Of a stretch of 64,000 bases of DNA, positions 2,111-62,294 are shown piece by piece (positions within the stretch are counted from its first letter, which is position 1; every line of letters starts with the position of its first letter). The stretch covers positions 45,946 through 109,945 of the IMG/VR virus record IMGVR_UViG_3300038505_000007. One strand, 5' to 3'. The translations under genes were made by a program, and so were the position numbers. Under the pieces are notes generated by a model. It made no database searches, had not been told where the DNA came from, and worked only from the letters and a program-made list of their open reading frames with translations. The stretch comes from a virus.

Positions 2111-2821
2111 ATGGAGACTAGGGTGGCCGAGGTCCGAGAGGGCCGTTTAAAGGCAACTGAACCGACGAACCGACTAGACGTGGCAGTCCAAAACATGGCG
2201 CAGAAAGAGGCTCACGTAGCTCCAGAGGAGCTCTTGGTGTTGAGGAGAGAGGCCCTCTCTGTCGCGGAGTCGATGCTTGGGAGGCTCTCTACAGCGCGCA
2301 AGAGTATGCTGTACCTCATGATGCACGAGGTGGGCAACATAGCGTCTTTTGACTCTTCTACTGACTACGTGAGACTGAAGCAGAGCGCAGACCACTACTC
2401 AAACATGCTGAAATACCTCTACGAGAAGGCTCCGCGCGTCTACGACGCTTTCTGCACGCTTGACATGAGGCAAGATAGTGAGCTATCTAAGCAGATAAAC
2501 AGCACAATGAAGAGGCTCCTCATCTCCAGAGGAATCACACACCTCCCAAAGATGCTCATGAGTCTCTCCTTAGAGAGAAAGAAGAGGTCCTCGAAGAGGA
2601 GAGACCTGCTCTACGACACGTCTGAGGTGGACGCCCTATATCACATCCTCTCAAAGCGAGACTTCGCTTTGAACGAGGTCGCGACTCTGCTTGTAGTGTA
2701 CGACAGCATCGTAAGCAGTGAGATACCGGTGGCTAGCGGCCATCACAGCGACAACGTAGCTATATTATTCTCTCTGTTTTCTTACTTGCTCACTAGAGCC
2801 GTGCTCGACACGATGGGTTGA
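2111..2821 (+). CDS. hypothetical protein (236 aa)
   Basis: Long ORF with GGAG SD. Confidence 0.75.
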   Translation: METRVAEVREGRLKATEPTNRLDVAVQNMAQKEAHVAPEELLVLRREALSVAESMLGRLSTARKSMLYLMMHEVGNIASFDSSTDYVRLKQSADHYSNMLKYLYEKAPRVYDAFCTLDMRQDSELSKQINSTMKRLLISRGITHLPKMLMSLSLERKKRSSKRRDLLYDTSEVDALYHILSKRDFALNEVATLLVVYDSIVSSEIPVASGHHSDNVAILFSLFSYLLTRAVLDTMG

Positions 2822-2871
2822 GAGTCGCGTTTTCCGATATTATAAATAAAACAACAATAAGGAGGTATTAT

Positions 2872-3249
2872 ATGAAGAGTCAAAAAGAAGCAGTATTTCT
2901 GACAGTCTCAGAGGTTCTAGGTCGCGTCCCCTTAAAGGGCGAGCGAGTAGTCCTCACTAAGGAGCAGACAGAGCAGGTCAAATCTATCCTGCTTGAGGAG
3001 TTCAAGCAGGGCAGGGTGCAGCTAGGTTGCACTTACTCGGAGCAAGACTTGAAGAAGTACGTGGCTGGGCTGGTAGCTAACTGGTTAAGAAAAGACGTAA
3101 GACTGAACGGCGGAGTTGAGTTAAAGGCCTCTGCCTCTAAAGCTAAGCAGCAGGAGCAGCGGAGTGAGGCAGCCGAGAGTACCTCTTTAGAGGACATGTC
3201 TTTGAGCGAGCTCGTATCTGTTGCTAGACAAGCTGTGAGGACGGCTTGA
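2872..3249 (+). CDS. hypothetical protein
   Basis: SD AAGGAGGT before ATG 2872. Confidence 0.75.
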   Translation: MKSQKEAVFLTVSEVLGRVPLKGERVVLTKEQTEQVKSILLEEFKQGRVQLGCTYSEQDLKKYVAGLVANWLRKDVRLNGGVELKASASKAKQQEQRSEAAESTSLEDMSLSELVSVARQAVRTA

Positions 3250-3354
3250 TGCTGTCCTCCTTAATAGGTATGCGACACATACACATACTATAAACAAGAC
3301 TTCGTACTTATTCTGAAAATAATTTATTAAAAACAAAAACAAGGGAGGGTAAAC

Positions 3355-4470
3355 ATGAGAGCGTCAGACATTCCTAACATCTTAAATCTAGCTCTTCGAG
3401 CTAGAGAGAACGGCTTAGTATTCAATCCTATGTTCAGGGGTGAGGCTGGTCTAGGTAAATCTCAAGTAGTCCAGCAGTGGGTAGAGGAGCAGCAAAAGAA
3501 AGACCCGACTTTTGGCTTTGTCGACCTGCGCATTGCTTACATGGAGGCACCAGACTTAATCGGCTTCCCTCACAAAGAAAAAGACGAGAACAACCTAGTG
3601 AGAACCACAAACGCGCTCCCGTCTTTCTGGCCTACCTCAGGTAGAGGCCTGCTGTTCTTAGAGGAAATAAACCGCGGAAAAACATCTGTAATGAACGCTC
3701 TCATGCAGCTCCTCACAGATAGAAAGATTCATGAGTACACCCTACCTGAGGGCTGGATAATAGCCGCCGCTGTGAACCCTGATACTAGTAAGTACGACGT
3801 AAACGTTATGGACCAAGCTCTGATGGATAGGTTCGAGGTGTTCGACATCGAGTACGACCACGAGTCTTTCTCTCGATACATGGCCAAGAGCAACTGGCAT
3901 CAAAACATACAGTACTTTATCAACCAAGCTCTATGGGTGTATAAAAAACCAGAAGAGCTAGCAGAAGACGCAAAATACATCTCTCCAAGAACGTGGTCAA
4001 AGCTCAACGCTGCCGAGAAGTCTGGCTTGGCTAGTAGCCGCGCTATGCACTTCACGGTATCCACGTCTATCCTAGGTAAGAGTATCGGAACGGCCTACCA
4101 TAAGTTCTGTTTCGACGAGTCTCCTGTTACGGCCTTTGATCTACTAGAGAACACAGAGCGCTCGCTTGAGAGAATCAAGGAGCTAGTTAAAAACTCCTCG
4201 TACAGAGGCGACATGATCTCTGTATTAGTTCAATCTATCGTCCAAAACTTTGGTGGGCCAGACGAGACGTGTGAGCAGGGTAAAATACCAGAGTCCTTGA
4301 TGATCAAGGTAGCAGACATCATCCCAGCAGATCAAGCTGTTCAGCTCATCAAGGAGTGCGCTTTCGCTACCAACAAAGGCATACAGTATATCAAAGAGTT
4401 GGCAGAGAGACACAAGAGTGTCCTCAAGAGGATCAAAGCAGACGTTGTGACAGAGGACGATAAGAACTAA
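3355..4470 (+). CDS. MoxR-like AAA+ ATPase
   Basis: Walker A GEAGLGKS, Walker B LFLEEINR, AVNP sensor and DQALMDRF arginine finger; adjacent VWA gene. Confidence 0.9.
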   Translation: MRASDIPNILNLALRARENGLVFNPMFRGEAGLGKSQVVQQWVEEQQKKDPTFGFVDLRIAYMEAPDLIGFPHKEKDENNLVRTTNALPSFWPTSGRGLLFLEEINRGKTSVMNALMQLLTDRKIHEYTLPEGWIIAAAVNPDTSKYDVNVMDQALMDRFEVFDIEYDHESFSRYMAKSNWHQNIQYFINQALWVYKKPEELAEDAKYISPRTWSKLNAAEKSGLASSRAMHFTVSTSILGKSIGTAYHKFCFDESPVTAFDLLENTERSLERIKELVKNSSYRGDMISVLVQSIVQNFGGPDETCEQGKIPESLMIKVADIIPADQAVQLIKECAFATNKGIQYIKELAERHKSVLKRIKADVVTEDDKN

Positions 4471-7735: not shown

Positions 7736-8545
7736 ATGGGCAACTTGTCATGTGTTGAAGGCGTAACTAAAGAAGAAATCATTGACTTGTTTAGTAATCT
7801 ATTCTATTTTAGAAAATTAGAGAGCATATCTAATAACAGCTTAGACGAGTACTTACTGGCAAAATTATCGCCAGATATAGTGGAAAAGATAAAACTAAAG
7901 AAATCTAAAATAAAGATAGTACCTGCAATAAACAGCATAAACATACAACATGCCGACAAATTCATTGTGTTGCTAAACAAGAACAACGAAGACTGGGGCG
8001 AAGTGTTTATTACTTCCATCTTGTTATCATACAGATCAATAATGAAAAAGGTAGATGAAATAATTAAATTCTTGGATCAACTAAATATATCAAGAATAGA
8101 GAATCTTAACGCATATAGTATTTTTGATTTAGCTATAAACATAGCTCATGGATATAAAGTTTTTAAGTTTCACACCGACGTAGAGAGGTCTTATGTAAAG
8201 TCAATGACTCAAGCGATTGAGCTTATTATCGACGTAAATAGCTTCAACATCCTAAGAGATCCATCTACTAATGAGCTTTTACTATGTCCGCTAATCTATA
8301 TATCTACTTACTACGCAAACCTGTTTCCCTATGAGCTTGAAATAAAAGCAAATGACATACTCGCCATAATGAAACAAAAAATACTTACTGGCATGTTAGA
8401 CGACGAAACCAGTGAAAAAGTAATGATTAACTCAATATTAAACGGCGAGCGCTACTTATCTAAAGAATTATTAAGATCTGGCCGTAAAGCTATGGCAGCA
8501 CAGGATGAAATAAAGACCCTTATGAGGATTTCCAAAAACATATAG
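7736..8545 (+). CDS. hypothetical protein (269 aa)
   Basis: Long ORF, AAGGAG SD. Confidence 0.7.
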   Translation: MGNLSCVEGVTKEEIIDLFSNLFYFRKLESISNNSLDEYLLAKLSPDIVEKIKLKKSKIKIVPAINSINIQHADKFIVLLNKNNEDWGEVFITSILLSYRSIMKKVDEIIKFLDQLNISRIENLNAYSIFDLAINIAHGYKVFKFHTDVERSYVKSMTQAIELIIDVNSFNILRDPSTNELLLCPLIYISTYYANLFPYELEIKANDILAIMKQKILTGMLDDETSEKVMINSILNGERYLSKELLRSGRKAMAAQDEIKTLMRISKNI

Positions 8546-20375: not shown

Positions 20376-21088
20376 TGAACAGCAGCAAAAAACAAAATAC
20401 AGAAGAAAGACTATCAGAGGCCCTACTGTCAAAAAACAAAGTCGAGCTTATATCTATAACAGAAAATGCAGAAAAAATAATAACTTACTGCGCAAGAGTC
20501 TCTAATCCTAAAAATCAACTTAATTTTCAATCAGCAGAAAAACTGATAAAATACTTAATAACACACAAGCACTGGTCTCCTTTTGAGATGGCTAGTATGA
20601 CAGTTCAGATAAAAACATCTAGAGCCATATCGTCGCAAATACTACGACACAGAAGTTTTACTTTTCAAGAGTTCTCTCAGAGGTACGCGGCTCTCGACGA
20701 GAGCGGAGTAGAGATATACACTGCAAGAAGACAAGACGATAAGAATAGACAAAACTCCATAGATGACCTACCAGAAGACATTAAGCAAGAGTGGGAAAGG
20801 AGACAGCTAGAAAACTGGAAAAAATCTTTTGAGCACTATAAGTGGGCTATAGACAACAACATAGCGAAAGAGTGTGCAAGATTTGTGTTACCATTGGGTA
20901 CATCGACTACGATGTATATGTCCGGCACAATCAGATCATGGATACACTACATAGAGCTAAGATCAGCAAACGGCACTCAAAAAGAACACATGGATATAGC
21001 TCTAAAATGCAAAGATATCTTTAAGAGAGAGCTGCCCTTAATATATCAAGCACTGTGGGGAAAAGATGAGCAGGAACAAAAAGAGTAA
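20375..21088 (+). CDS. thyX: flavin-dependent thymidylate synthase
   Basis: HWSPFE, RHRSFTFQEFSQRY signature, ARFVLP, W.HYIELR. Confidence 0.95.
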   Translation: MNSSKKQNTEERLSEALLSKNKVELISITENAEKIITYCARVSNPKNQLNFQSAEKLIKYLITHKHWSPFEMASMTVQIKTSRAISSQILRHRSFTFQEFSQRYAALDESGVEIYTARRQDDKNRQNSIDDLPEDIKQEWERRQLENWKKSFEHYKWAIDNNIAKECARFVLPLGTSTTMYMSGTIRSWIHYIELRSANGTQKEHMDIALKCKDIFKRELPLIYQALWGKDEQEQKE

Positions 21089-21701
21089 GTTCTTGTTAGA
21101 AGAGCAAGACGCGACGCATAACGCAGCTGGCTATACAGAAGTTGTCTCAAATGGTTTTGAGATAAACGTGTGCGAGTTTGACTCAAACTCTGTTAATGAT
21201 ATTAGGAAGCAAATACTCAGCGCTGCGTCTTCTAACCCAATGAGACCTATTATCTTAGCCATCGATTCATACGGAGGCTCAGTCTATGGTGCCTTAAAGA
21301 TAATAGATACTATAAAAGAGATCCCAAACCCTGTCATCACGATGGCTATAGGTAAAGCCATGAGTGCTGGAGCGCTCCTGTTAACACAAGGCGATATCAG
21401 GATCGCGACACCAAACTCAAAAATCATGATACACGAAGTCATAGGTGGCTTCTTTGGATCAACGTCTGAGATGAACACAAACGCCAGCGAGCTAAACAAG
21501 ATAAACGACCAAATACTATCAATGATAGCTCACAAGACTTCTTTTAAGACACTAAAGAAGCTAAAAGACTGGATGAGAAAAAATGGCCCTGGAGACATAT
21601 TCATCTCTCCTAGAGAGGCCAAAAACTTAGGCATGATAGATGAGATAGGATGGCCTAAAGTTCAAGAGAAGATCGTCTATAGCATAGCCATTAAAAAATA
21701 A
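21066..21701 (+). CDS. ClpP-family protease (paralogue 1)
   Basis: IDSYGGSV, KAMSAG (catalytic Ser), IMIHE (His), DIFISPREA (Asp). Confidence 0.88.
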   Translation: MSRNKKSKFLLEEQDATHNAAGYTEVVSNGFEINVCEFDSNSVNDIRKQILSAASSNPMRPIILAIDSYGGSVYGALKIIDTIKEIPNPVITMAIGKAMSAGALLLTQGDIRIATPNSKIMIHEVIGGFFGSTSEMNTNASELNKINDQILSMIAHKTSFKTLKKLKDWMRKNGPGDIFISPREAKNLGMIDEIGWPKVQEKIVYSIAIKK

Positions 21702-22239: not shown

Positions 22240-23016
22240 ATGACACTAAGGCAAGCTTGTTTGTATTTTTTGTTTTTTGTCGCGTCAGCTGGAACCTTCA
22301 ACCCAGTCAATACCGCTCTTGCGGCTCCCTTTGTAAGAGTAGCAGTCATCGATACTGGTCTACCTATGGTGCCCATTGCCAACGATTATCTATGCCACAG
22401 CGGACACAAAGACTTCACGAACACTACCATCGCAGACCTGCAAGGCCACTCAACATCTGTGGCTTACTTGATTCACAAGTACTCCGAGCTTAACAAGAGC
22501 AAATACTGTCAGGTTCATATAAAGTTCTTTAACAAAGAAGGCGATAACACAGATACGCTCAGCTCGTCTGTGCGAGCCATAGAGCACGCTATAGAGTTAA
22601 AAGTAGACATAATCAACTACTCAGGTGGAGGAAAAACATTCTCTCAAGAAGAGAAGATAGCCGTAAAGAAGGCTCTCAATGCTGGGATCATATTTGTCGC
22701 CTCGGCTGGAAACGATGGTGTTGATTTAGACCGTTTTAAGTACTACCCTGCCACACTAGATGAGCGAGTTATAGTTGTTGGCGCTCACAATAAACAGCAT
22801 CAAAAATTAAATTCATCTAACTTCTCTGACACGATTGTTGACCTATGGGAGGTAGGAGTCTTCTACGAAGATTTTGGTACTGGAGAGAAAAAGATGTTCT
22901 CTGGCACATCAGCTGCAACCGCAGTGGCTACCGGTAAAATAATTAAAAACTTATTCAATATAAGGAGCCATTATGAGAGCAACGATAGAGTTCAATTTGC
23001 CAGAGGAGAAAGATGA
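22240..23016 (+). CDS. secreted subtilisin-like (S8) serine protease
   Basis: Signal peptide; VAVIDTG, GHSTSVA, SAGNDG, SGTSAAT. Confidence 0.9.
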   Translation: MTLRQACLYFLFFVASAGTFNPVNTALAAPFVRVAVIDTGLPMVPIANDYLCHSGHKDFTNTTIADLQGHSTSVAYLIHKYSELNKSKYCQVHIKFFNKEGDNTDTLSSSVRAIEHAIELKVDIINYSGGGKTFSQEEKIAVKKALNAGIIFVASAGNDGVDLDRFKYYPATLDERVIVVGAHNKQHQKLNSSNFSDTIVDLWEVGVFYEDFGTGEKKMFSGTSAATAVATGKIIKNLFNIRSHYESNDRVQFARGER

Positions 23017-23218: not shown

Positions 23219-23517
23219 CCACGATGTCTCAAAAGCAAAGACACGAGCTGTCTGCTTTAAAAAAGCTACTAGAAAACTCCAGCCTACTAGATAAGCTTAT
23301 TCCATTCTTGATAGAAGAAAAGATTATCACTAAAAAAGACGTACCACTTTTAACGCAGCAAAACACAGCAAGCAACTTATACGAGCTTCTCAATAAGTCT
23401 TTAAAAGAAGAGACTCTACAGATGGTAGAGTACACATGGCAAATACTTCCAGTAGAGCAATGTAAGATAGTAATAATAGGTAAAAAAGATAAAATTGAGT
23501 GCTCTATTAACTTTTAA
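23215..23517 (+). CDS. hypothetical protein
   Basis: ATGA overlap with previous gene. Confidence 0.6.
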   Translation: MTTMSQKQRHELSALKKLLENSSLLDKLIPFLIEEKIITKKDVPLLTQQNTASNLYELLNKSLKEETLQMVEYTWQILPVEQCKIVIIGKKDKIECSINF

Positions 23518-24304
23518 CTTCTTCGCTGCTAGGTTCTTTGTTTTCTAACTCGGCCTGTTTTTCAGGCGGCACCTGCTCAAGTGTTTCTAAGTCTTCTTCT
23601 GGATAGACCTCAGGTAGGTTAACGCTTATGTTAACTGTGCTCTTCTTGTTGACTCGCTTGTATATGTTCATGATAAGCTTTTTTAATTGCTTTGATTCTA
23701 TCTTTGAGTTCAACACAGAAGACCTCACTCTCCTGAACTTACCTCTATTTTTAGGCTCTATTATCTTATCTGCTAATCCTAAAGTGATAGCTTCTTCTGC
23801 TGTTAAGTAGACATCGCGCTGCCCCACGTCTTCCCAAAAAGACTTAGGCAGCCTAGAGTTCTTTGCATATATGTCGTAGATTAAGTTTCTCACCCTCTTG
23901 TCTTCTGTGGCATTTATCTGGCTATCTGTGTGCGAGCCGTCAAAAAAAGTAGAACCATCATGTATCATCACTGTTGTGTTCTTGTGTAGATACCTCTCAT
24001 CGCACCCAGCCATTATACAGCTGGCAGCGCTCATTATGGCTCCTCCGCCATAGAACTTAACTTGACAAGGACAAGCTTGAATCTCGTCGTAAAGCCTAAG
24101 CATTGAGTAAACATCTCCGCCATACGAGAACATGTGTATCTCTATGGGCTTGGAGTTTGATTCTGCTACCATAGCGTGTATAGCTCTGATAGCATACTCA
24201 ACAGTCATTGGGTTAAACTCAGAAGACGTCTCTGAGTCAAAAGAAGAGAGGACCCCACCAAAGTATATTCTTCTGTTTTTTAGGTCAACTCCATTCTCTA
24301 TCAT
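23507..24304 (-). CDS. ClpP-family protease (paralogue 2) with acidic C-terminal extension
   Basis: FSYGGDV, AIMSAA, VMIHD, RDVYLTAEEA. Confidence 0.88.
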   Translation of the reverse strand: MIENGVDLKNRRIYFGGVLSSFDSETSSEFNPMTVEYAIRAIHAMVAESNSKPIEIHMFSYGGDVYSMLRLYDEIQACPCQVKFYGGGAIMSAASCIMAGCDERYLHKNTTVMIHDGSTFFDGSHTDSQINATEDKRVRNLIYDIYAKNSRLPKSFWEDVGQRDVYLTAEEAITLGLADKIIEPKNRGKFRRVRSSVLNSKIESKQLKKLIMNIYKRVNKKSTVNISVNLPEVYPEEDLETLEQVPPEKQAELENKEPSSEEVKS

Positions 24305-45657: not shown

Positions 45658-46482
45658 TTAATCTTTAACAGGCACCTTCATTTCTTTTCTTGCGTCAGGC
45701 TCTATCAGATTGGTCTTGGACCTAAACTCTGCACCACATTTCTTGCATTTAAACTTTTGATATTTACCTACTTTTGTGTAGTAGAAGCCATTTTTCTTTA
45801 ACTCAGTAGACCCACAGGAACACATGTGCTCGTTGTCTTTATTAAATAAAGACCAGTTGATAGTTGGGGCCCAGGGGGCAAGCTTTTTATAAAGCTCCTC
45901 TAAGGCTAGAACATCATGCTTGTTGTATTCTTCCATTTCTTTAAATGCCTCAATATTCCCTTTCATACACTCACGCCACATCTCAAAGCCTTGGAACTTT
46001 TTAGGCTTAAGCTTCTTATAAGACTGGCAAAGCGTATTAGAGAGGTACTCTAGCCTATTAGAAGTAAAATCAAAGTGCTTTTTAGCTATCTCTTTTGTAT
46101 CTATGTGTTTAAAGGAAGAAGGCGGCTGAAAGCCATTTATGATAAATCTTGCGTTTAGCTTTCTTTGATCAAATCTTTTCCCATTCTGGGTTATAACAAC
46201 ATCGGCTTTATCCAGTAACTCCCATATTTGTTTAAGCAAGTCTGAGTCGTCTTCTATGTTCTTAGCATGTCTTTGATCCATGTACATGATCTCATCTTCT
46301 GGGGAATTAAGCCATTTGGCGCTCCAGCTCAATATAAACCAGTCGCTTATAACATGGTTTAACTGAACCTCTTTATCCCACAAAGACCAAACATAGGCAG
46401 ACAAAGGTGCAGTCTCAATATCAAAGACAAGAACTTTAGCCCCATACTTGGGGGGATCAAATATCTTCACTTTTTTAGACAT
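45658..46482 (-). CDS. DnaQ/RNase_H_2-like 3'-5' exonuclease with C-terminal Zn ribbon
   Basis: VFDIETA, NGKRFD, YNKHDV; CSCG...CKKCG. Confidence 0.85.
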   Translation of the reverse strand: MSKKVKIFDPPKYGAKVLVFDIETAPLSAYVWSLWDKEVQLNHVISDWFILSWSAKWLNSPEDEIMYMDQRHAKNIEDDSDLLKQIWELLDKADVVITQNGKRFDQRKLNARFIINGFQPPSSFKHIDTKEIAKKHFDFTSNRLEYLSNTLCQSYKKLKPKKFQGFEMWRECMKGNIEAFKEMEEYNKHDVLALEELYKKLAPWAPTINWSLFNKDNEHMCSCGSTELKKNGFYYTKVGKYQKFKCKKCGAEFRSKTNLIEPDARKEMKVPVKD

Positions 46483-55360: not shown

Positions 55361-57253
55361 CTACTTTTCTTCGTCTAACTTGTTAATAGTATTTGCTACT
55401 ACTTTTCCATCTATATTGTTAGCCTTTGTAGCCCCAAACTCCTTAGCAGACTCTCTTAATGACGACTGTTCTGAAGAATCTGGTGCTTGTTGTTCACCTT
55501 CACCCTGAGAGGCAGCCATTTGCTGCATCTGCATCATTTGTTCTTGCTGCTCTTGAAGAGCTTTCTTCTGCTCTTTAGCGTTTTCAATAGCTAATATAGT
55601 TTGTTGCCAAGCTAGGAAAGCACTGTCGCCTGGTATGTACGCGAGCTCTTTTCTCCTAGATGCTCCAACGTCTCCAAAAAATATCTCCCTGATCTCACCT
55701 CTTGTGTAGTTCTTCTCTACAAGAGCCCAAAATGCTTGGTTTAGAGGAAGATCCGCAGCTGGTGTCTTTAATGTAGGCCTTTGAGCGGCTGTAAGGAGGT
55801 CGTTCATACTTCTCCATACAGTCATCTCTGCTTGCATCAAAGCAACATTCGTCTGCGCCGTCTCATCTGTGTAACCTGTAAATACAAACATATATTTTTC
55901 AGCAAGCGCTGGGTCAATAGCAGGAATAATATCTGAGTTAACAAGATCTTCAATGAACATCAGGATAGGATATAAGCCTCTTTCTCTTGAGTAGGCAATC
56001 TTGTATTCGTTATTTGCCTGCTGAGAAGGAGATCTTCCTGTACCAGAAGAAAGATAATCTAAGCCTAGCTCTACCGGGTCAATCTGAAACATAGAGCAAA
56101 CAACCCGCATCAAATGGTTGTTAAAATTAATGTACTCCATCTCACGGGCAGACGCAGACATAGGAACCCACTGCACATCATCCAAGCCCGCAACAATAGG
56201 CGTCCTCCATGCATGTTGATGCCCAGATATTGAGTTATAGAACTGCCTTCTAAAAGCAGCAAGCTGGTCTTGTGTCACTGTTCCTTTTAAGTGCAATATG
56301 CCTCTTGCTGCATAACCGTGAGTAAAAAAATTAGCGTTATACGATTCAACATTTATATGGTTTGTTATATTTATGATAGCTAACTCAAGCGGGGAATAGC
56401 AGTACCCATTTAAATCTACAAAGTTCTGCGGGTTAAATAGCTTAAATATCATGTCTTCGTCGCCGAAGTACACCATCTCGTTCTTATCGTAAGAGAGCTG
56501 GACATATTTATAATAACCAATATCAGCGTCATTTAACGCGTACTCAGCCGACGGATCATTAGAGCTCTTAGGTTTAAACAATGCAGTATTATTTTTTAAT
56601 GACTGCTCTATCTGCTCTCTTGAGATATTTTTGTTCACTAGATAAACAGACTCAGCAGGAAGAGGCCTAAACCTATGTAAGCCTCCGTTTCGAGTCTTGA
56701 TCTTTTCTATAGCTACGTGCCCAAAAGTAAGAGCATCTCTCACGATGAGCTTAAGAAACTCACCAAAAAGCATCCTATCTTCAGCTGGAGTACCCTCTCG
56801 TCTGCCGCAATTATAAATAAAATCTTCTAATGCAGCTATCTCTTGCAGCTCTTCTTGCGTATACTCGCTATTCTTGTCTCTCTTGACTACCCTAAAACCA
56901 GTCTCAAATCTCCTATGCTCTGGCCTAGAAAAACGCAACAAAGTGTCTACTCTTGTTTGAATTATAGTAGACACAAGCCAGTCTCTCATAGAGACATCTT
57001 TTAATGTCTTATTGCTTAGACCTGAAAGTTTGTGCTTATATGTACCACTAACACCAGAATTATCGAAATATGGGTCCTCAATGATCGCCTTCCTACCTAC
57101 AATCTCTTTGTCATAAGGTCTCTCAGGCTCATCTGGTAAAGAGTCAGCAAGACCAGAGGAAGGAGATGGAGCAGGATATGAGTTTATCTTTTGCAGAGAT
57201 TCTTCAGAGATTTGAACCTTATTGCTCTTGAACAAGAAATCAAAAATACCCAT
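55361..57253 (-). CDS. portal protein
   Basis: Follows TerL; LRPL-like FRPLP, YSPLELA, NANFF..G...RGIL, FQIDPVELG. Confidence 0.9.
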   Translation of the reverse strand: MGIFDFLFKSNKVQISEESLQKINSYPAPSPSSGLADSLPDEPERPYDKEIVGRKAIIEDPYFDNSGVSGTYKHKLSGLSNKTLKDVSMRDWLVSTIIQTRVDTLLRFSRPEHRRFETGFRVVKRDKNSEYTQEELQEIAALEDFIYNCGRREGTPAEDRMLFGEFLKLIVRDALTFGHVAIEKIKTRNGGLHRFRPLPAESVYLVNKNISREQIEQSLKNNTALFKPKSSNDPSAEYALNDADIGYYKYVQLSYDKNEMVYFGDEDMIFKLFNPQNFVDLNGYCYSPLELAIINITNHINVESYNANFFTHGYAARGILHLKGTVTQDQLAAFRRQFYNSISGHQHAWRTPIVAGLDDVQWVPMSASAREMEYINFNNHLMRVVCSMFQIDPVELGLDYLSSGTGRSPSQQANNEYKIAYSRERGLYPILMFIEDLVNSDIIPAIDPALAEKYMFVFTGYTDETAQTNVALMQAEMTVWRSMNDLLTAAQRPTLKTPAADLPLNQAFWALVEKNYTRGEIREIFFGDVGASRRKELAYIPGDSAFLAWQQTILAIENAKEQKKALQEQQEQMMQMQQMAASQGEGEQQAPDSSEQSSLRESAKEFGATKANNIDGKVVANTINKLDEEK

Positions 57254-57295
57254 AAAACACCTCTATAGCTCAAAAAATTATACTAATAAATAAAA

Positions 57296-57670
57296 CTAGT
57301 CACCATTAGATTTAGCTATATCCAATACAACTTTTGTAAAGTTCTCGTTAATCTTGCTAGCTTTTATTAAAAACTCAGTAAAATCAATGTTATTGTTTTT
57401 TGTATATACAAAAATCTTATAAACAAGAAAATAGCTTAACTCCTCAAAAGAGGACTGATATAGAGCCACAACAAGGTCGACAATAAAATCATAAAAATCT
57501 TCTACTTCTTGTTTAGATAGACTTGTTTTGCCTGCATTTTCTAAAAAATCTAAAGCCACATACATATTTCCTGTTAAATAGGCATACCTTCTCTCATAAT
57601 CAGAGAAGAATGGCTTCTCAAAATAAGGCGGACCTATCATAGCAAAATCGAGTTTAGAAAAATTAAACAT
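57296..57670 (-). CDS. AT-rich hypothetical protein between TerL and portal
   Basis: GGAG SD before ATG 57670. Confidence 0.55.
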   Translation of the reverse strand: MFNFSKLDFAMIGPPYFEKPFFSDYERRYAYLTGNMYVALDFLENAGKTSLSKQEVEDFYDFIVDLVVALYQSSFEELSYFLVYKIFVYTKNNNIDFTEFLIKASKINENFTKVVLDIAKSNGD

Positions 57671-57686
57671 ACTGTCTCCGGTTGTC

Positions 57687-59243
57687 TTAAAAAGACCATA
57701 TAAATCCACCACTGTTGTTAGGATCAGAGCCTGGATCTTCGTCTCTGTCTATATCAGAGATTTTACCTATTTTTCCTAAATTATTAGGCGTGCCGTCAGC
57801 AACTGAAGGCACATCATTATTGTTTATAGGTATACCCATAGCTTCTGCAAACTCTACTGGAGTTGGAGCCTTAGTAAAGGCAACCCCAGAAGAGTCTCTA
57901 AGACCATAAGTAGAGTCATATGTAAGAGCATCCCCTAAGATAATCGTAGACTTACCTAATATCAATGTTATTGCGTAACGGAGAGCATCTATCCAGTGGT
58001 CGTGCTCTGTGTCTGGCTCATCTGTAGCAAGCCCAGAAGCATCTAGTTTATAGTGATACTGACTCATCTCTGCTATTATATGAGAGCAGGTCTCTTTTGC
58101 AAACACAAGCTTAGGTTCAGAAGAGATAGGAGACTTTAGTAGCTTTCTTATTATCTGGATACCAAACTTAATAGGCTCTTTCTTTGCAGAGTTAGATACA
58201 GGAAGACCAGCTTTTTGCATCTCCATTATAGAGCCCTGATCTGCCTGGTCAGGCACGTATAACTGTATCCTATATTTGTTATGATACTTTGTTTTTATGT
58301 AGTGAATCCAAGTAGGAGCAGAAACATGTGTCATACCGTCAGTCTTAACTACATAAACATTATCTTTCTTGTCTATAAAGAATATCACTATGGTATTTGG
58401 AGAGCTAAATCCCCAGTCAATACCAGCAAATGCCTGAAGACCCATAGAGTGGCATTTTGCGACGAAGATGTCATGTGTGCACTCTCCTGGGAACTCCTGA
58501 CCTGTCAGCATAAGCCACATCTGGTTCCACGTCTTTACATGGAGTCTTTCTTCGAACTCTCTAAATATAATCCCCTCAATTGAAGGCTTTAGATTAACAA
58601 GCTGAGCTAAAGACCAATCTGGTCCCTCTGCGACAGCTTTTTGAATAACTTCATCTAGAGTCTTAAGCATGTTAGAAGTAGAGGTTTGCTTTTTAGCATC
58701 TGTTAAACAAATGGGAAAAATAGGACAATTAGCACAACCTGAAAAACCTTCTTGAGCCATATATTCTTTTTGCTTATTTGGATCTTTTTTAAGATACTGC
58801 TCTTCTGTAAGTGTCTCCATTCTTTCTTGGTTGTAGTACAGCATTACTTTTTCTGTGCCAGATCTCTCGTCTGTGCATCTCTCTGTAAACTCAAATACAG
58901 TCCATCTCCTAACTGTTCTTCTTTCTTTCTCAGCGTTCTCTATCTGCTTGTTCATCAGACCAAATGTAGACTTTCTAGTAGAGATACCAACACGAAGGGC
59001 CTTCTTGTCACCCCTAGAGTCGAGCATACCTGATATTTCTTTAAAAGCCTTCTTGCCTTCTCCGCTAACTGTATCTATCTCGTCTACTACTACTAGAGGA
59101 GCATGGGGACCATTACAATTATGGTGAATAGTCCCGTCTTGAGTCTTAAAACTATGCTTAAAATCATTATCAGCATTGGAGTCTACTTCCAAAACTGATA
59201 CAGGTTTTGCTCCTAATAAAGTCTTTAACTTTACTTTAGCCAT
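57687..59243 (-). CDS. terL: terminase large subunit C-terminal part, preceded by split intein C-half
   Basis: 42-aa IntC ending HHN then Cys+1; Walker B VVVDEID, ISTRK, nuclease GIDWG and HWIDALRY. Confidence 0.92.
   Translation of the reverse strand: MAKVKLKTLLGAKPVSVLEVDSNADNDFKHSFKTQDGTIHHNCNGPHAPLVVVDEIDTVSGEGKKAFKEISGMLDSRGDKKALRVGISTRKSTFGLMNKQIENAEKERRTVRRWTVFEFTERCTDERSGTEKVMLYYNQERMETLTEEQYLKKDPNKQKEYMAQEGFSGCANCPIFPICLTDAKKQTSTSNMLKTLDEVIQKAVAEGPDWSLAQLVNLKPSIEGIIFREFEERLHVKTWNQMWLMLTGQEFPGECTHDIFVAKCHSMGLQAFAGIDWGFSSPNTIVIFFIDKKDNVYVVKTDGMTHVSAPTWIHYIKTKYHNKYRIQLYVPDQADQGSIMEMQKAGLPVSNSAKKEPIKFGIQIIRKLLKSPISSEPKLVFAKETCSHIIAEMSQYHYKLDASGLATDEPDTEHDHWIDALRYAITLILGKSTIILGDALTYDSTYGLRDSSGVAFTKAPTPVEFAEAMGIPINNNDVPSVADGTPNNLGKIGKISDIDRDEDPGSDPNNSGGFIWSF
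59118..59243 (-). other. split intein C-fragment (42 aa)
   Basis: MAKVKLKTLLGAKPVSVLEV...KHSFKTQDGTIHHN|C. Confidence 0.88.
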
Positions 59244-59249
59244 ATGCCG

Positions 59250-59993
59250 TTATCTGTTTAATCCTATAACTTGTAGCATAGAAAACACAGGAGCGCCAAA
59301 GAAACTAACAGCAGTGGTGCTTATTGATATATTAACTCCAATTACAACATCGTCGGCGACATTGTTAGTGTCTTTTAAATCATAAGTTGTCATTATAGGC
59401 CCCCCGCTCATGCCGCTAAATATGGAAGACCCTTGCATGCTTAGATTGTTCCAAACAGGCCCTACGTACATAGCATAAACACATCTAAGAATCCCGCCAA
59501 AAGGATAGCCGCATGACCTAATTGGCATTGGTTGCGCAGGAAAGTTTGGCAAATTATTTCCATATAAATCTAATCTCAAAGAATCAAAATTGCTAAAATC
59601 ACCTCTTATAAAAGCTATATCGTTAACGGCGCTAAAAGCAACAACATGCGCTACACCTGACTCAGAAAAATCATGAGAAGCAAAATATAAAGTGTTAGGC
59701 TCCTTCTTCATAGAAAGAAGATTATGCCTAAAACTTAAGCAATGAGCAGCTGTGACTGCCATATTTTTTGAAACAACAAAACCAGAGCAGGTAGTAATAA
59801 AACTCTTGTCTGACTGTAACAACCTAATAAATGGATATTTTTTAGTAGGCCGATCTAATCTCATTAATAATGAATGTGGCTGTAGGTCTTGTCTATCTAT
59901 GTTTGCCATCTTATACAATGGGTCAGTAAATAATAGTAAATACCCACACCCTACAACTAGTACCAATAAAAGCGTTCTTAAAAACAATCCCAT
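59250..59993 (-). CDS. membrane-anchored/exported trypsin-like (S1) serine protease
   Basis: N-terminal hydrophobic helix; CSG..VTAAHC (His), NDIAF (Asp), GMSGGP (Ser). Confidence 0.9.
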   Translation of the reverse strand: MGLFLRTLLLVLVVGCGYLLLFTDPLYKMANIDRQDLQPHSLLMRLDRPTKKYPFIRLLQSDKSFITTCSGFVVSKNMAVTAAHCLSFRHNLLSMKKEPNTLYFASHDFSESGVAHVVAFSAVNDIAFIRGDFSNFDSLRLDLYGNNLPNFPAQPMPIRSCGYPFGGILRCVYAMYVGPVWNNLSMQGSSIFSGMSGGPIMTTYDLKDTNNVADDVVIGVNISISTTAVSFFGAPVFSMLQVIGLNR

Positions 59994-60000
59994 AAAAACC

Positions 60001-60789
60001 TCACAAAACTTCGTGTTCTTCAGTTAAGTCTTTTAACTCTACCCATCCTTTATTTGTGTATACCTTATGATCTAAGGTGCCCTCTATTGTTCTACCGTCA
60101 TCTAACTCCACTCTAATACACGGTCTATAATCTATGTAATTCGAAACAACCCTAGCTTCTCCTTGAGCAGACTCAACAATGTCGTCTTTTTTAAGATCGC
60201 GCACCTTGACAGATCGCCCGTCTTTCAACTTAACTAAAGAATCCACGGTTAGACAGGCTTTTAGTGTCATCGGGAGAACCTCAAGGGTTACTTTTTCACC
60301 TCCTAGGTTAAACACTGTTTTAGACATGTTTGACTTCTCTAGTATCCTCTTTTCCTCAGGCACATCCTCTGGAGCAACAATTTCTTGTATGTGTTTCTTA
60401 AACAAGAAGTTTTTTTGATAGTTATAGCAACGCTCAGCCTGGCTTAGAATTGCACCCACATGAACTACATCTCTTTGGTCATGAAGAAGGACCATAAGCT
60501 CCGCCACAGCCATACCTAAGGTCTTTCCGGATCCCCTTCCTGCGACAAACAATAGCTCTTGAATCTTTTGTGGGTTGTTCTTTAGGACACAGATCGAATA
60601 AACCTCCCATATAACATCTAGCGGGTTTGTGTCGCTATATCTAGACACAGTTACATCTGGAAGGTCTAGATCAAGAAAATACTTAATCCAAGCTTTTAGC
60701 TCTTTCTTAGTCTTACATGGTTTAAGAAAAAGCTCTCTCTTCTCTTCTAAAGTAAGAGTCTTCTTTTTCTCATTACTCTTTTGAGCCAT
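60001..60789 (-). CDS. terL: terminase large subunit N-terminal part, ending in split intein N-half
   Basis: Walker A AGRGSGKT, QAE.C; then CLTVDS...TLDH...GWVELKDL and stop. Confidence 0.92.
   Translation of the reverse strand: MAQKSNEKKKTLTLEEKRELFLKPCKTKKELKAWIKYFLDLDLPDVTVSRYSDTNPLDVIWEVYSICVLKNNPQKIQELLFVAGRGSGKTLGMAVAELMVLLHDQRDVVHVGAILSQAERCYNYQKNFLFKKHIQEIVAPEDVPEEKRILEKSNMSKTVFNLGGEKVTLEVLPMTLKACLTVDSLVKLKDGRSVKVRDLKKDDIVESAQGEARVVSNYIDYRPCIRVELDDGRTIEGTLDHKVYTNKGWVELKDLTEEHEVL
60004..60255 (-). other. split intein N-fragment (84 aa)
   Basis: Cys1 block A CLTVDSLV, block B TLDH, GW..KDL, acidic C-terminal end. Confidence 0.9.
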
Positions 60790-60810
60790 AAGAGTATTTA
60801 TACTAAACTA

Positions 60811-61500
60811 TTACTCTTCTACGATATCAATTATAGAGAGCTCTTTGTTTTCTAATTGCGAGCTCTTGTTTTCTGAGCTAGACTGTTGGTTGCTGCCTTC
60901 TTTAGCTGGAGATATATCTTTTATCTCCTGTTTTTGCTCATAAGAGATGCCCTTTTTCTGACTCTTATTAGAGAGTTGTTTAGGAGCATCAGGTGTTTTA
61001 TAGTTGTTTACTACGTTTGAAATGTTGTTAACTGTCCTACTTAGGGTCTCGACTACTTCCTTATATTCTTTAATTGACTCTATCCTTAATTTAGGCTTGG
61101 GATTGTTTTTAGGATCTAATACGTAATTCTGCATCTCAGTTACGTGCTCAGCTGTAGCCACAGAGAGTAAGGAAGTCAAGAAGTCGAGCTGATCTACTAC
61201 AGACTTTACTAGCTTTGCTTTAACTCGCTCTTGTATTGAGCTCTGTATCCTTTCTCTATCATAGGCCCAGCCTTTTATAGCAGCCGTGAGGGCTATCTGT
61301 CCAAAAGAGTATTGCGGGAACTGAATAGAGAGTCTATAAAGAGACTCTCCTAATAAATACATCTCATAAAGCTTAGACGCCTCATGGTCTGGGATAATAG
61401 ACTTAGTCTTATATTTTCTTAAGAAACGCTGAGCGTGAATTATCTCGTCTTCCGAGAGTCCATATCGCTGCTTATCTGTTAACTTTCTTTTGTCTCCCAT
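60811..61500 (-). CDS. putative terminase small subunit
   Basis: Directly upstream of TerL; helical N-terminus, GW..DR motif, coiled-coil. Confidence 0.55.
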   Translation of the reverse strand: MGDKRKLTDKQRYGLSEDEIIHAQRFLRKYKTKSIIPDHEASKLYEMYLLGESLYRLSIQFPQYSFGQIALTAAIKGWAYDRERIQSSIQERVKAKLVKSVVDQLDFLTSLLSVATAEHVTEMQNYVLDPKNNPKPKLRIESIKEYKEVVETLSRTVNNISNVVNNYKTPDAPKQLSNKSQKKGISYEQKQEIKDISPAKEGSNQQSSSENKSSQLENKELSIIDIVEE

Positions 61501-61867
61501 GGAGATCCCTCCAAAAGGACTTATTCTTTACAGCCATCATTGCTGCCCTTAACTTTGCATCATCTATATTATACTTAGAACTTATATCTTGTATAGATAA
61601 GCCCAAATATATTAAAGAGACTAGCCACCTCCCCACTGGGGATAAGTTCTTCTCTATAGTCTCCTTTATAGAGAGAGCATCCATATTAGATAAAACAGTA
61701 TTTATTTTTAAAATAAATGTCTTTTCTTGTTCTATCCTGCTTTTTATGATATTTAATATATAACAAGCAGCATAACTTGGATCGTTTTGCAGTAAGAAAG
61801 CATGGGCCTCGTCTTCTAAGACGTCAAAATCACTACTAGACAAAACTAATCTTTTCTGGCCCTTCAT
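61472..61867 (-). CDS. hypothetical protein with sigma-4/LuxR-like HTH
   Basis: LSPVGRWLVSLIYLGLSIQDISSKYNI. Confidence 0.5.
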   Translation of the reverse strand: MKGQKRLVLSSSDFDVLEDEAHAFLLQNDPSYAACYILNIIKSRIEQEKTFILKINTVLSNMDALSIKETIEKNLSPVGRWLVSLIYLGLSIQDISSKYNIDDAKLRAAMMAVKNKSFWRDLHGRQKKVNR

Positions 61868-62294
61868 TATTTTCTATTCTACCATAGCTGCTAATATGCA
61901 TGAACCTCAAAGATGCCTTCCATGAAGGACCAAGAGTAAGGGCAAGATTATTATTTAGCATATCCTCGTGGCCATCTATGTCTTCAAACACTCTCAAGCG
62001 CTTACATAGAAGATAATACAACACCTTGTTAGATCTTAACTTTTTAGCAACACGATACCTAAACATAGTGATAGAGTCAGTATAGATCACGTAATCTATC
62101 ATCTTAGACTTGAAGTTTATGTCAAGAGATATAGCCAATATCTTGGTATCAATAACAGTGGCTAGCACAAAAAGATCATTCTTTATGCTATCTGTTATTA
62201 AGTTATTGTTAATAAGCCACCTTCTGCTGTCTACATATTGATCTGGAGACACTGTCTTTCCATTACTAAGGACTATCTTAAAATCTTTGCTCAT
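61836..62294 (-). CDS. hypothetical protein
   Basis: AGGAG SD. Confidence 0.7.
   Translation of the reverse strand: MSKDFKIVLSNGKTVSPDQYVDSRRWLINNNLITDSIKNDLFVLATVIDTKILAISLDINFKSKMIDYVIYTDSITMFRYRVAKKLRSNKVLYYLLCKRLRVFEDIDGHEDMLNNNLALTLGPSWKASLRFMHISSYGRIENNEGPEKISFV

Follow-up and report, generated by a model that had tools for sequence, protein, structure and literature searches.

How does a phage obtain a complete terminase large subunit (TerL) when the gene is broken in two, and what is a protease gene doing in the break? Both questions are raised by a locus on the minus strand of a 64,000-nucleotide (nt) stretch of the viral record IMGVR_UViG_3300038505_000007 (positions 45,946 to 109,945 of that record). 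The whole stretch is called the window below, and all positions refer to it. Three open reading frames (ORFs) follow one another here, TerL-N (60001-60789, 262 amino acids (aa)), a gene for a trypsin-like serine protease (59250-59993, 247 aa) and TerL-C (57687-59243, 518 aa). As judged from sequence comparison, TerL is interrupted by a natural class-1 split intein at the canonical split site, inserted at TLKA/C just upstream of Walker B. Taken as a whole, the explanation that we favour, a trans-spliced TerL with an exported accessory protease carried as a passenger in the intein gap, appears likely to us. The original prediction, made from the letters of the window, had proposed the three ORFs, a Walker A motif, an 84-aa N-terminal intein half (IntN) and a 42-aa C-terminal half (IntC) ending in HHN and followed by Cys, and all of these were recovered at the coordinates that it gave. 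In coding order, the features of the locus are:

60256 to 60789, minus strand: TerL N-extein, aa 1-178, with Walker A (GRGSGKT) and the end ...LPMTLKA
60004 to 60255, minus strand: IntN, 84 aa, with Cys1 (C179), block B TLDH and an acidic C-terminal end; its TGA stop lies at 60001-60003
59994 to 60000, minus strand: 7-nt spacer, in which the stop codon plus GG gives a GAGG Shine-Dalgarno-like site for the protease gene
59250 to 59993, minus strand: trypsin-like serine protease of predicted S1 chymotrypsin fold, 247 aa, with a hydrophobic helix at aa 2-20, His84, Asp125 and Ser196, and the pairs Cys69/Cys85 and Cys161/Cys171
59244 to 59249, minus strand: 6-nt spacer, without a convincing Shine-Dalgarno site
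59118 to 59243, minus strand: IntC, 42 aa, with the Lys-rich start MAKVKLK, block F (LEV...HSF) and block G (HHN)
57687 to 59117, minus strand: TerL C-extein, 476 aa, starting CNGPHAPLVVVDEID (Walker B) and including an RNaseH-like nuclease domain

The two outer ORFs together carry both sets of features of a terminase large subunit, Walker A in TerL-N and Walker B with the RNaseH-like nuclease in TerL-C. From Cys179 onwards TerL-N reads CLTVDS...GTLDH...GWVELKDLTEEHEVL and then stops; TerL-C reads MAKVKLK...TIHHN and continues directly into CNGPHAPLVVVDEID, with Cys43 right after HHN and Walker B (VVVDE) 8-12 residues past Cys43. TerL-C matches Pfam Terminase_6C (6.5e-8) and the PHROG terminase large subunit (1.8e-24), and the N-extein is 38% identical to the TerL of Myxococcus phage Mx1 and 61-80% identical to intact TerL genes. 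Mx1 is the closest deposited phage, and its single 667-aa TerL aligns with residues 24-139 of TerL-N and 44-423 of TerL-C; in general, the matches of relatives' TerL proteins to TerL-C begin at residue 43/44. The gene order is also that of Mx1 (phosphoesterase, two small ORFs, TerL, small ORF, portal), and the phage is a roughly 170-kb-class, Mx1-related phage from hot-spring microbial mats.

One line of evidence for the intein comes from relatives that lack it. The closer ones in IMG/VR encode TerL in a single piece of 641-647 aa, reading ...TLEVIPCTLKACNGPHVPLVVVDEIDTVSGEG... at this point. When TerL-N 179-262 and TerL-C 1-42 are removed and the flanks are joined, the predicted product is a TerL of 654 aa with the splice-junction peptide ACNGPHAPLVVVDEIDTVSGEGK, an exact match to the junction ...TLKACNGPH... 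of the intact relatives. In tblastn searches with four segments against 88 loci, the gap between the N- and C-extein matches was exactly 0 nt in more than 60 loci. Such a layout, in which excision of IntN, cargo and IntC would restore collinearity, is far beyond what chance alignment would give. The product ...LPMTLKA/C proposed in the original prediction, placed just ahead of Walker B, is the junction found in more than 60 intein-less TerLs; searches for relatives, which it had suggested, also recovered other inserts at this site, of HNH, DUF7487-type and nucleotidyltransferase kinds.

The insert itself resembles known inteins in sequence. IntN passes the NCBIfam model TIGR01445 (intein_Nterm) with 29.9 bits against a cut-off of 24.5, over model positions 1-83 from Cys179, and weaker Pfam matches to Hint, Vint and Intein_splicing concur; within the 126-kb genome record this is the sole intein_Nterm match. 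A profile of IntN built from ten diverged alleles retrieves only inteins at the top of a PDB search, with gp41-1 (6qaz) at E 4e-4, then NrdJ-1, followed by Npu/Ssp DnaE, DnaB and RecA, and the corresponding profile of IntC aligns end to end with residues 1-36 of the 36-aa Npu DnaE IntC (4lx3_B) at E 0.057. The profile searches proposed for the two halves have in this way led to gp41-1, NrdJ-1 and DnaE. Cys1, the Thr and His of block B, the terminal Asn (Asn42) and Cys+1 (Cys43) are invariant in all ten alleles, and the penultimate His is nearly so. As predicted, the halves carry opposite charges: IntN has a net charge of -4 (-3 in its last 25 aa), and the first 15 aa of IntC have +4. IntN ends at a stop codon and IntC has its own ATG, so that the halves lie on separate polypeptides, broken at the region where endonucleases are inserted.

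The best profile matches of both halves are the gp41-1/NrdJ-1 (6qaz, 6riz, 8ubs) and Npu/Ssp DnaE (4lx3, 4kl5, 2keq) inteins. The split site is the same as in these systems, the IntC start MxKIK...G.KQ is shared, and the sizes are similar in kind (84 and 42 aa here, against 36 aa for the Npu DnaE IntC chain 4lx3_B). They differ in their low similarity to our element (E 4e-4 and 0.057), in host protein and in insertion site; in our element, moreover, about 6 aa are inserted between blocks F and G, and block F lacks its Asp. AceL-TerL and GOS-TerL are natural split inteins in phage large terminases of the T4 gp17 type, with a very short IntN (about 25 aa) and a long IntC. In contrast, the intein described here has the canonical split site, a different insertion point and an Mx1-type TerL as its host.

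This element has many relatives at the same site. A search with TerL-N returned 62 clusters, most of them 250-340 aa long and with near-full query coverage, and 14 of the 15 homologues that were aligned end in the same IntN. On this evidence, at least 62 TerL-N clusters would carry the split-intein allele, and fractured terminases are common. The content of the gap, where it was recovered, varies from allele to allele:

L025: a 197-225 aa ORF of HNH / endonuclease VII type
L028: a 306-aa ORF of HNH type
L029 and L072: a 466-559 aa DUF7487 / PHROG homing endonuclease, on the same strand
L024 and L036: a 486-494 aa DUF7487 / PHROG homing endonuclease, on the opposite strand
L026 and L038: a Pol-beta-like nucleotidyltransferase of 179-182 aa plus an ORF of 292-299 aa without a detectable family
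the window and L010-L012: the protease

Among these alleles, the protease is found in the gap only in the lineage of the window and L010-L012. The original prediction was right that a protease is unusual here, in that related alleles hold endonucleases; non-nuclease cargo as such is not unique. L026 (4974-6405) and L038 (5806-7216) carry a nucleotidyltransferase (DNA_pol_B_thumb and palm) and a second ORF, an arrangement present on many contigs. The second ORF of L026 (299 aa) belongs to no Pfam or PHROG family, and the ESM Atlas gave no usable match to it. From these annotations, the cargo of L026 and L038 is apparently a second instance of non-nuclease cargo. In a quick tree of the exteins, for which only Shimodaira-Hasegawa-like approximate likelihood ratio test (SH-aLRT) support was computed, the split alleles are interspersed with intein-less ones, L026 and L028 differ in cargo although their TerLs are nearly identical, and the protease clade stands alone on a long branch. 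As read from this tree, the pattern is the one expected of a mobile element made of split intein and endonuclease, with frequent gain, loss and turnover of cargo. The form with the protease lacks an endonuclease gene in the gap and seems to be passed on vertically.

Some further observations concern the TerL region of other members of the family. Among the 15 aligned TerL-N homologues, one of 411 aa (P0035) carries, besides the split IntN at TLKA/C, a second, contiguous mini-intein within Walker A (GSGK/C...SHN/T). In another of the 15, a diverged homologue of 291 aa (P0066), the intein apparently starts a few residues further downstream (...TMKALNGVH/C...), which may represent another insertion point or another intein. 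In L024, a gene for a DUF7487-type free-standing endonuclease (2599-4008) lies directly upstream of TerL-N, and a NUMOD3 / endonuclease VII-like gene (7858-8475) lies between TerL-C and portal. Homing endonuclease genes appear to have a hotspot in the terminase region.

What, then, is the gene in the gap of the window? The ORF matches Pfam Trypsin_2 (29.4 bits, cut-off 27.6) and Trypsin (26.5 bits, cut-off 20.6) and PHROG 9683 ('protease'), and the Pfam and PHROG searches found no nuclease domain in it. The motifs TAAHC, NDIAF and GMSGGP supply His84, Asp125 and Ser196, which are invariant in the family alignment, as are Cys69 and Cys85; we take the latter two to occupy the positions of the 'histidine loop' disulfide of chymotrypsin. 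An AlphaFold2 model (pLDDT 74, pTM 0.75) has a helix at residues 2-20, low confidence to about residue 51 and then a two-barrel chymotrypsin fold, and Foldseek places it with probability 1.0 and TM scores of 0.5-0.6 next to chymotrypsin, elastase, PR3 and HtrA, with no particular subfamily prominent. The model and the canonical order of the triad on a double beta-barrel identify the product as an S1 chymotrypsin-fold serine peptidase. The original prediction of a complete trypsin-like protease gene, separated from its neighbours by 7 and 6 nt, holds in every part. The Kyte-Doolittle hydropathy is 2.0-2.4 across the first 19-23 residues, and the N-terminus is hydrophobic in all nine family members aligned. 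A lipoprotein reading of the motif LVVGC was rejected, as L012 has a Tyr in place of Cys16 and L010 lacks the motif; since Cys16 is not conserved, the N-terminus would be a signal peptide or membrane anchor and not a lipoprotein signal.

The protease belongs to a large phage-borne family. A profile search returned 351 representative clusters at E<=1e-30, nearly all of 190-280 aa, and the ten clusters that were looked up came almost entirely from metagenome assemblies; a search of IMG/VR with the single protease protein gave no loci. The seven other genomic settings of family members that were examined all look phage-like, and none is flanked by intein halves. In three of them (L013, L014-L016, L107) the immediate neighbour of the protease gene encodes a Peptidase_M15_3 cell-wall peptidase; in the remaining settings the protease gene follows a ribonucleotide reductase gene or lies among nucleotide-metabolism genes. 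A complete 166-kb relative with an intact TerL encodes a distant homologue, with a lipoprotein-type signal, beside its DNA ligase gene, and the window's genome holds one copy only. Our protease resembles the small phage trypsin-like proteases (Trypsin_2 / PHROG 9683) in fold, triad, size (200-280 aa) and hydrophobic N-terminal segment; it differs in its place between intein halves, as the family members in the seven other settings are free-standing among replication or lysis-type genes. In the comparison with L010, the protease has a nonsynonymous divergence (dN) of 0.39, roughly ten times the value for the exteins, with ORF, triad and cysteines kept, which indicates a functional but fast-evolving gene.

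The window contains a second protease with an export-type N-terminus, at 22240-23016 on the plus strand. It is subtilisin-like (DTG...HSTSVA...GTSAATA by eye), has a signal-like segment and lies between two ClpP-like genes and upstream of a DNA ligase gene (associated coordinates 21066-21701, plus strand, and 23507-24304, minus strand). In the relative G001 the distant trypsin-like lipoprotein is encoded at the corresponding place next to the ligase gene. Exported proteases seem to recur across this group of phages.

The short spacers bear on how the three genes are expressed. The TerL-N stop codon and the GG behind it make up a GAGG site that precedes the protease ATG by 5 nt; L010 has conserved both the TGAGG motif of the window and its distance from the ATG. 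No convincing Shine-Dalgarno site precedes TerL-C, behind a spacer of 6 nt in the window and 2 nt in L010. If TerL-C is translationally coupled to the protease ORF, its synthesis would depend on translation of the cargo. A scan for promoters and terminators gave counts at the shuffled expectation and was uninformative. Around the locus, a 138-aa ORF between TerL and portal (57296-57712, minus strand), without an assigned family, overlaps the end of TerL-C by 26 nt. Its position is kept in L010 and L012 (124 aa in both), at a DNA identity to L010 of 0.62-0.75 against about 0.8 in TerL, and the counterpart in Mx1 is a 331-aa gene. The GC content at third codon positions is 0.30 in the protease gene and 0.26 in IntC (window 59118-59993), against 0.34-0.39 in the exteins and the portal gene, and the lower values would fit a separate origin for the insert.

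Could the stops instead be sequencing or assembly errors, or the mark of a decaying pseudogene, with the real TerL contiguous or encoded elsewhere? The window is indeed part of a metagenomic contig with a completeness of only 75%. This explanation is nevertheless already refuted by independent assemblies, by selection on the ORFs and by indel-free contigs, and we regard its probability as negligible. The same triplet of 262, 247-248 and 518 aa is present in Logan assemblies of other samples, 98-100% identical in L012 and diverged in L010 and L011, and a near-identical stretch occurs in about 20 public runs from more than ten studies, mostly hot-spring and microbial-mat metagenomes. Contigs of four runs, when compared with the window, showed transitions only, without indels, joints or variants in either stop codon, contrary to the fear of assembly errors voiced with the original prediction; two of them, X7 and X12, each span the whole stretch as single contigs at 25x and 111x depth, with single-nucleotide polymorphisms only. 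The genome encodes a single TerL. The DNA of L010 is about 20% diverged (in TerL the identity is about 80%; in the protease gene it ranges from 46 to 75%, with about 60% overall) and synonymous divergence (dS) is saturated at 1.7-2.6, yet the ORFs are kept, at an omega (dN/dS) of 0.015 for the N-extein, 0.026 for the C-extein, 0.036 for IntN and 0.07 for IntC. Removal at the RNA level, by an intron that carries the protease ORF, or a frameshift with readthrough that makes the protease an in-frame insert of a contiguous intein, is very improbable. It could draw on the observation, made in the original prediction, that the protease is in frame with IntC across a single TAA. This is real in the window but means nothing: the spacer is 2 nt and out of frame in L010, so that the in-frame TAA is not conserved and is coincidental, and an in-frame fusion by readthrough was rejected. 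TerL-N and the protease are in different frames as well. An Rfam scan of 56500-62000 found no intron and no other RNA family, in keeping with the earlier claim that there is none, and contigs from a metatranscriptomic library are collinear with the DNA across both gene junctions; on these grounds an intron was rejected. The boundaries of the insertion, moreover, coincide exactly with Cys1 and the Asn of the intein. One may also imagine a non-covalent heterodimer of the two TerL fragments, in which the intein halves serve only as a docking module and do not splice. The missing block F Asp across the allelic family would fit this idea; we find it distinctly unlikely, as Cys1, the block B Thr and His and the terminal Asn stay invariant in ten alleles, at 43-54% IntN identity to the window outside its own lineage. 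Docking alone would not require such invariance, and the junction lies inside the ATPase core, beside Walker B.

Another alternative concerns the protease, which could be functionally tied to packaging or to the intein, by processing TerL, portal or head proteins or by serving the element itself as a factor of mobility or addiction. Its gene is part of the packaging operon and has been retained through saturating divergence, and TerL-C translation may depend on it. Against this, every aligned member has a hydrophobic N-terminal helix, which together with the conserved Cys pairs suggests that the protein lies outside the cytoplasm; no protease gene occupies this site in relatives whose TerL is intact; and in the seven other settings the gene lies among replication or lysis-type genes, with no intein nearby. 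A putative separate prohead protease, noted elsewhere in the window by the original prediction, was counted on the same side. We consider such a role unlikely. Trans-splicing with an exported passenger remains the preferred explanation, and several points weigh against it. IntC alone has no significant match in Pfam or NCBIfam and, being too short, none by phmmer against the PDB, and its best PDB profile match reaches only E 0.057. The usual block F Asp is absent in all ten alleles aligned, as the original prediction had noticed for the window. Splicing in trans to a 654-aa TerL is a prediction from sequence, and the collinear RNA-library contigs may come from contaminating DNA. Hydrophobicity and conserved cysteines are what suggests export to the cell envelope, and no cell-wall peptidase gene neighbours the protease in L017, L108 and L109. 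Translational coupling of TerL-C to the protease ORF is likely, given the short spacers and the lack of a Shine-Dalgarno site.

Under the explanation that we prefer, TerL would be made as two polypeptides, each with one half of a class-1 split mini-intein (84 and 42 aa). The acidic IntN and the Lys-rich IntC would associate and splice in trans, giving a TerL of 654 aa with the layout of its intein-less relatives. The element would be one member of an allelic family of split TerL inteins, others of which have genes for free-standing homing endonucleases in the gap, and the protease would occupy the position of the endonuclease gene of related alleles. It would be a functional passenger, expressed from the late packaging operon through its own Shine-Dalgarno site overlapping the TerL-N stop, and TerL-C would probably start by termination-reinitiation after the protease ORF. 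With its N-terminal signal or anchor helix, the protease is probably exported to the cell envelope. Its targets there are probably envelope proteins of the host rather than TerL, with a part in lysis or exclusion, although this is the least certain step. A broader and more tentative proposal, possible but in our judgement doubtful, is that this site is a hotspot of cargo exchange in the most conserved gene of the phage, where nucleases, a nucleotidyltransferase and an exported protease swap. After loss of the endonuclease, the accessory gene would be fixed by TerL-C coupling and by recombination in the flanking terminase sequences between co-infecting phages, and the protease would be a late envelope-acting factor (a lysis aid or a means of superinfection exclusion) that the intein scaffold both spreads and maintains.

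Phage genes in which a split intein separates two parts and a free-standing endonuclease gene fills the gap have been described for gp41, NrdA/J, IMPDH, DnaE, ligase and terminase (Dassa, London, Stoddard, Schueler-Furman and Pietrokovski, 2009; PMC2677866), and the original prediction had drawn on this precedent correctly. The word 'protease' does not occur in the text of that paper, and in a 2025 survey of inteins from actinobacteriophages the types listed within or next to inteins are all nucleases. Our locus agrees with these fractured genes in the essential nature of the phage gene, the class-1 split at the endonuclease insertion point, the acidic IntN and basic IntC and the single free-standing ORF in the gap. 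The endonuclease in the gap is found in the sister alleles L024, L025, L028, L029, L036 and L072. In contrast, the gap gene of the window lineage is for a trypsin-like serine protease with an export-type N-terminus and not for an endonuclease. The intein and the fracture are already known; what is new is a stably kept non-nuclease gene in the gap and a family of canonically split TerL inteins.

The fast inteins of the gp41-1 and DnaE types are relatives of this family, which may yield tools for trans-splicing; heat tolerance of the hot-spring copy would be a guess from its habitat only. A split intein with a free-standing endonuclease has been regarded as one phase of a selfish element's life cycle, and our locus shows a possible next stage. 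The nuclease is absent, yet the split intein has been kept under strong selection past synonymous saturation, and the gap houses an ordinary accessory gene. These observations point to an unremarked niche for accessory genes inside an essential gene, and to a natural system in which to study how fractured genes persist.

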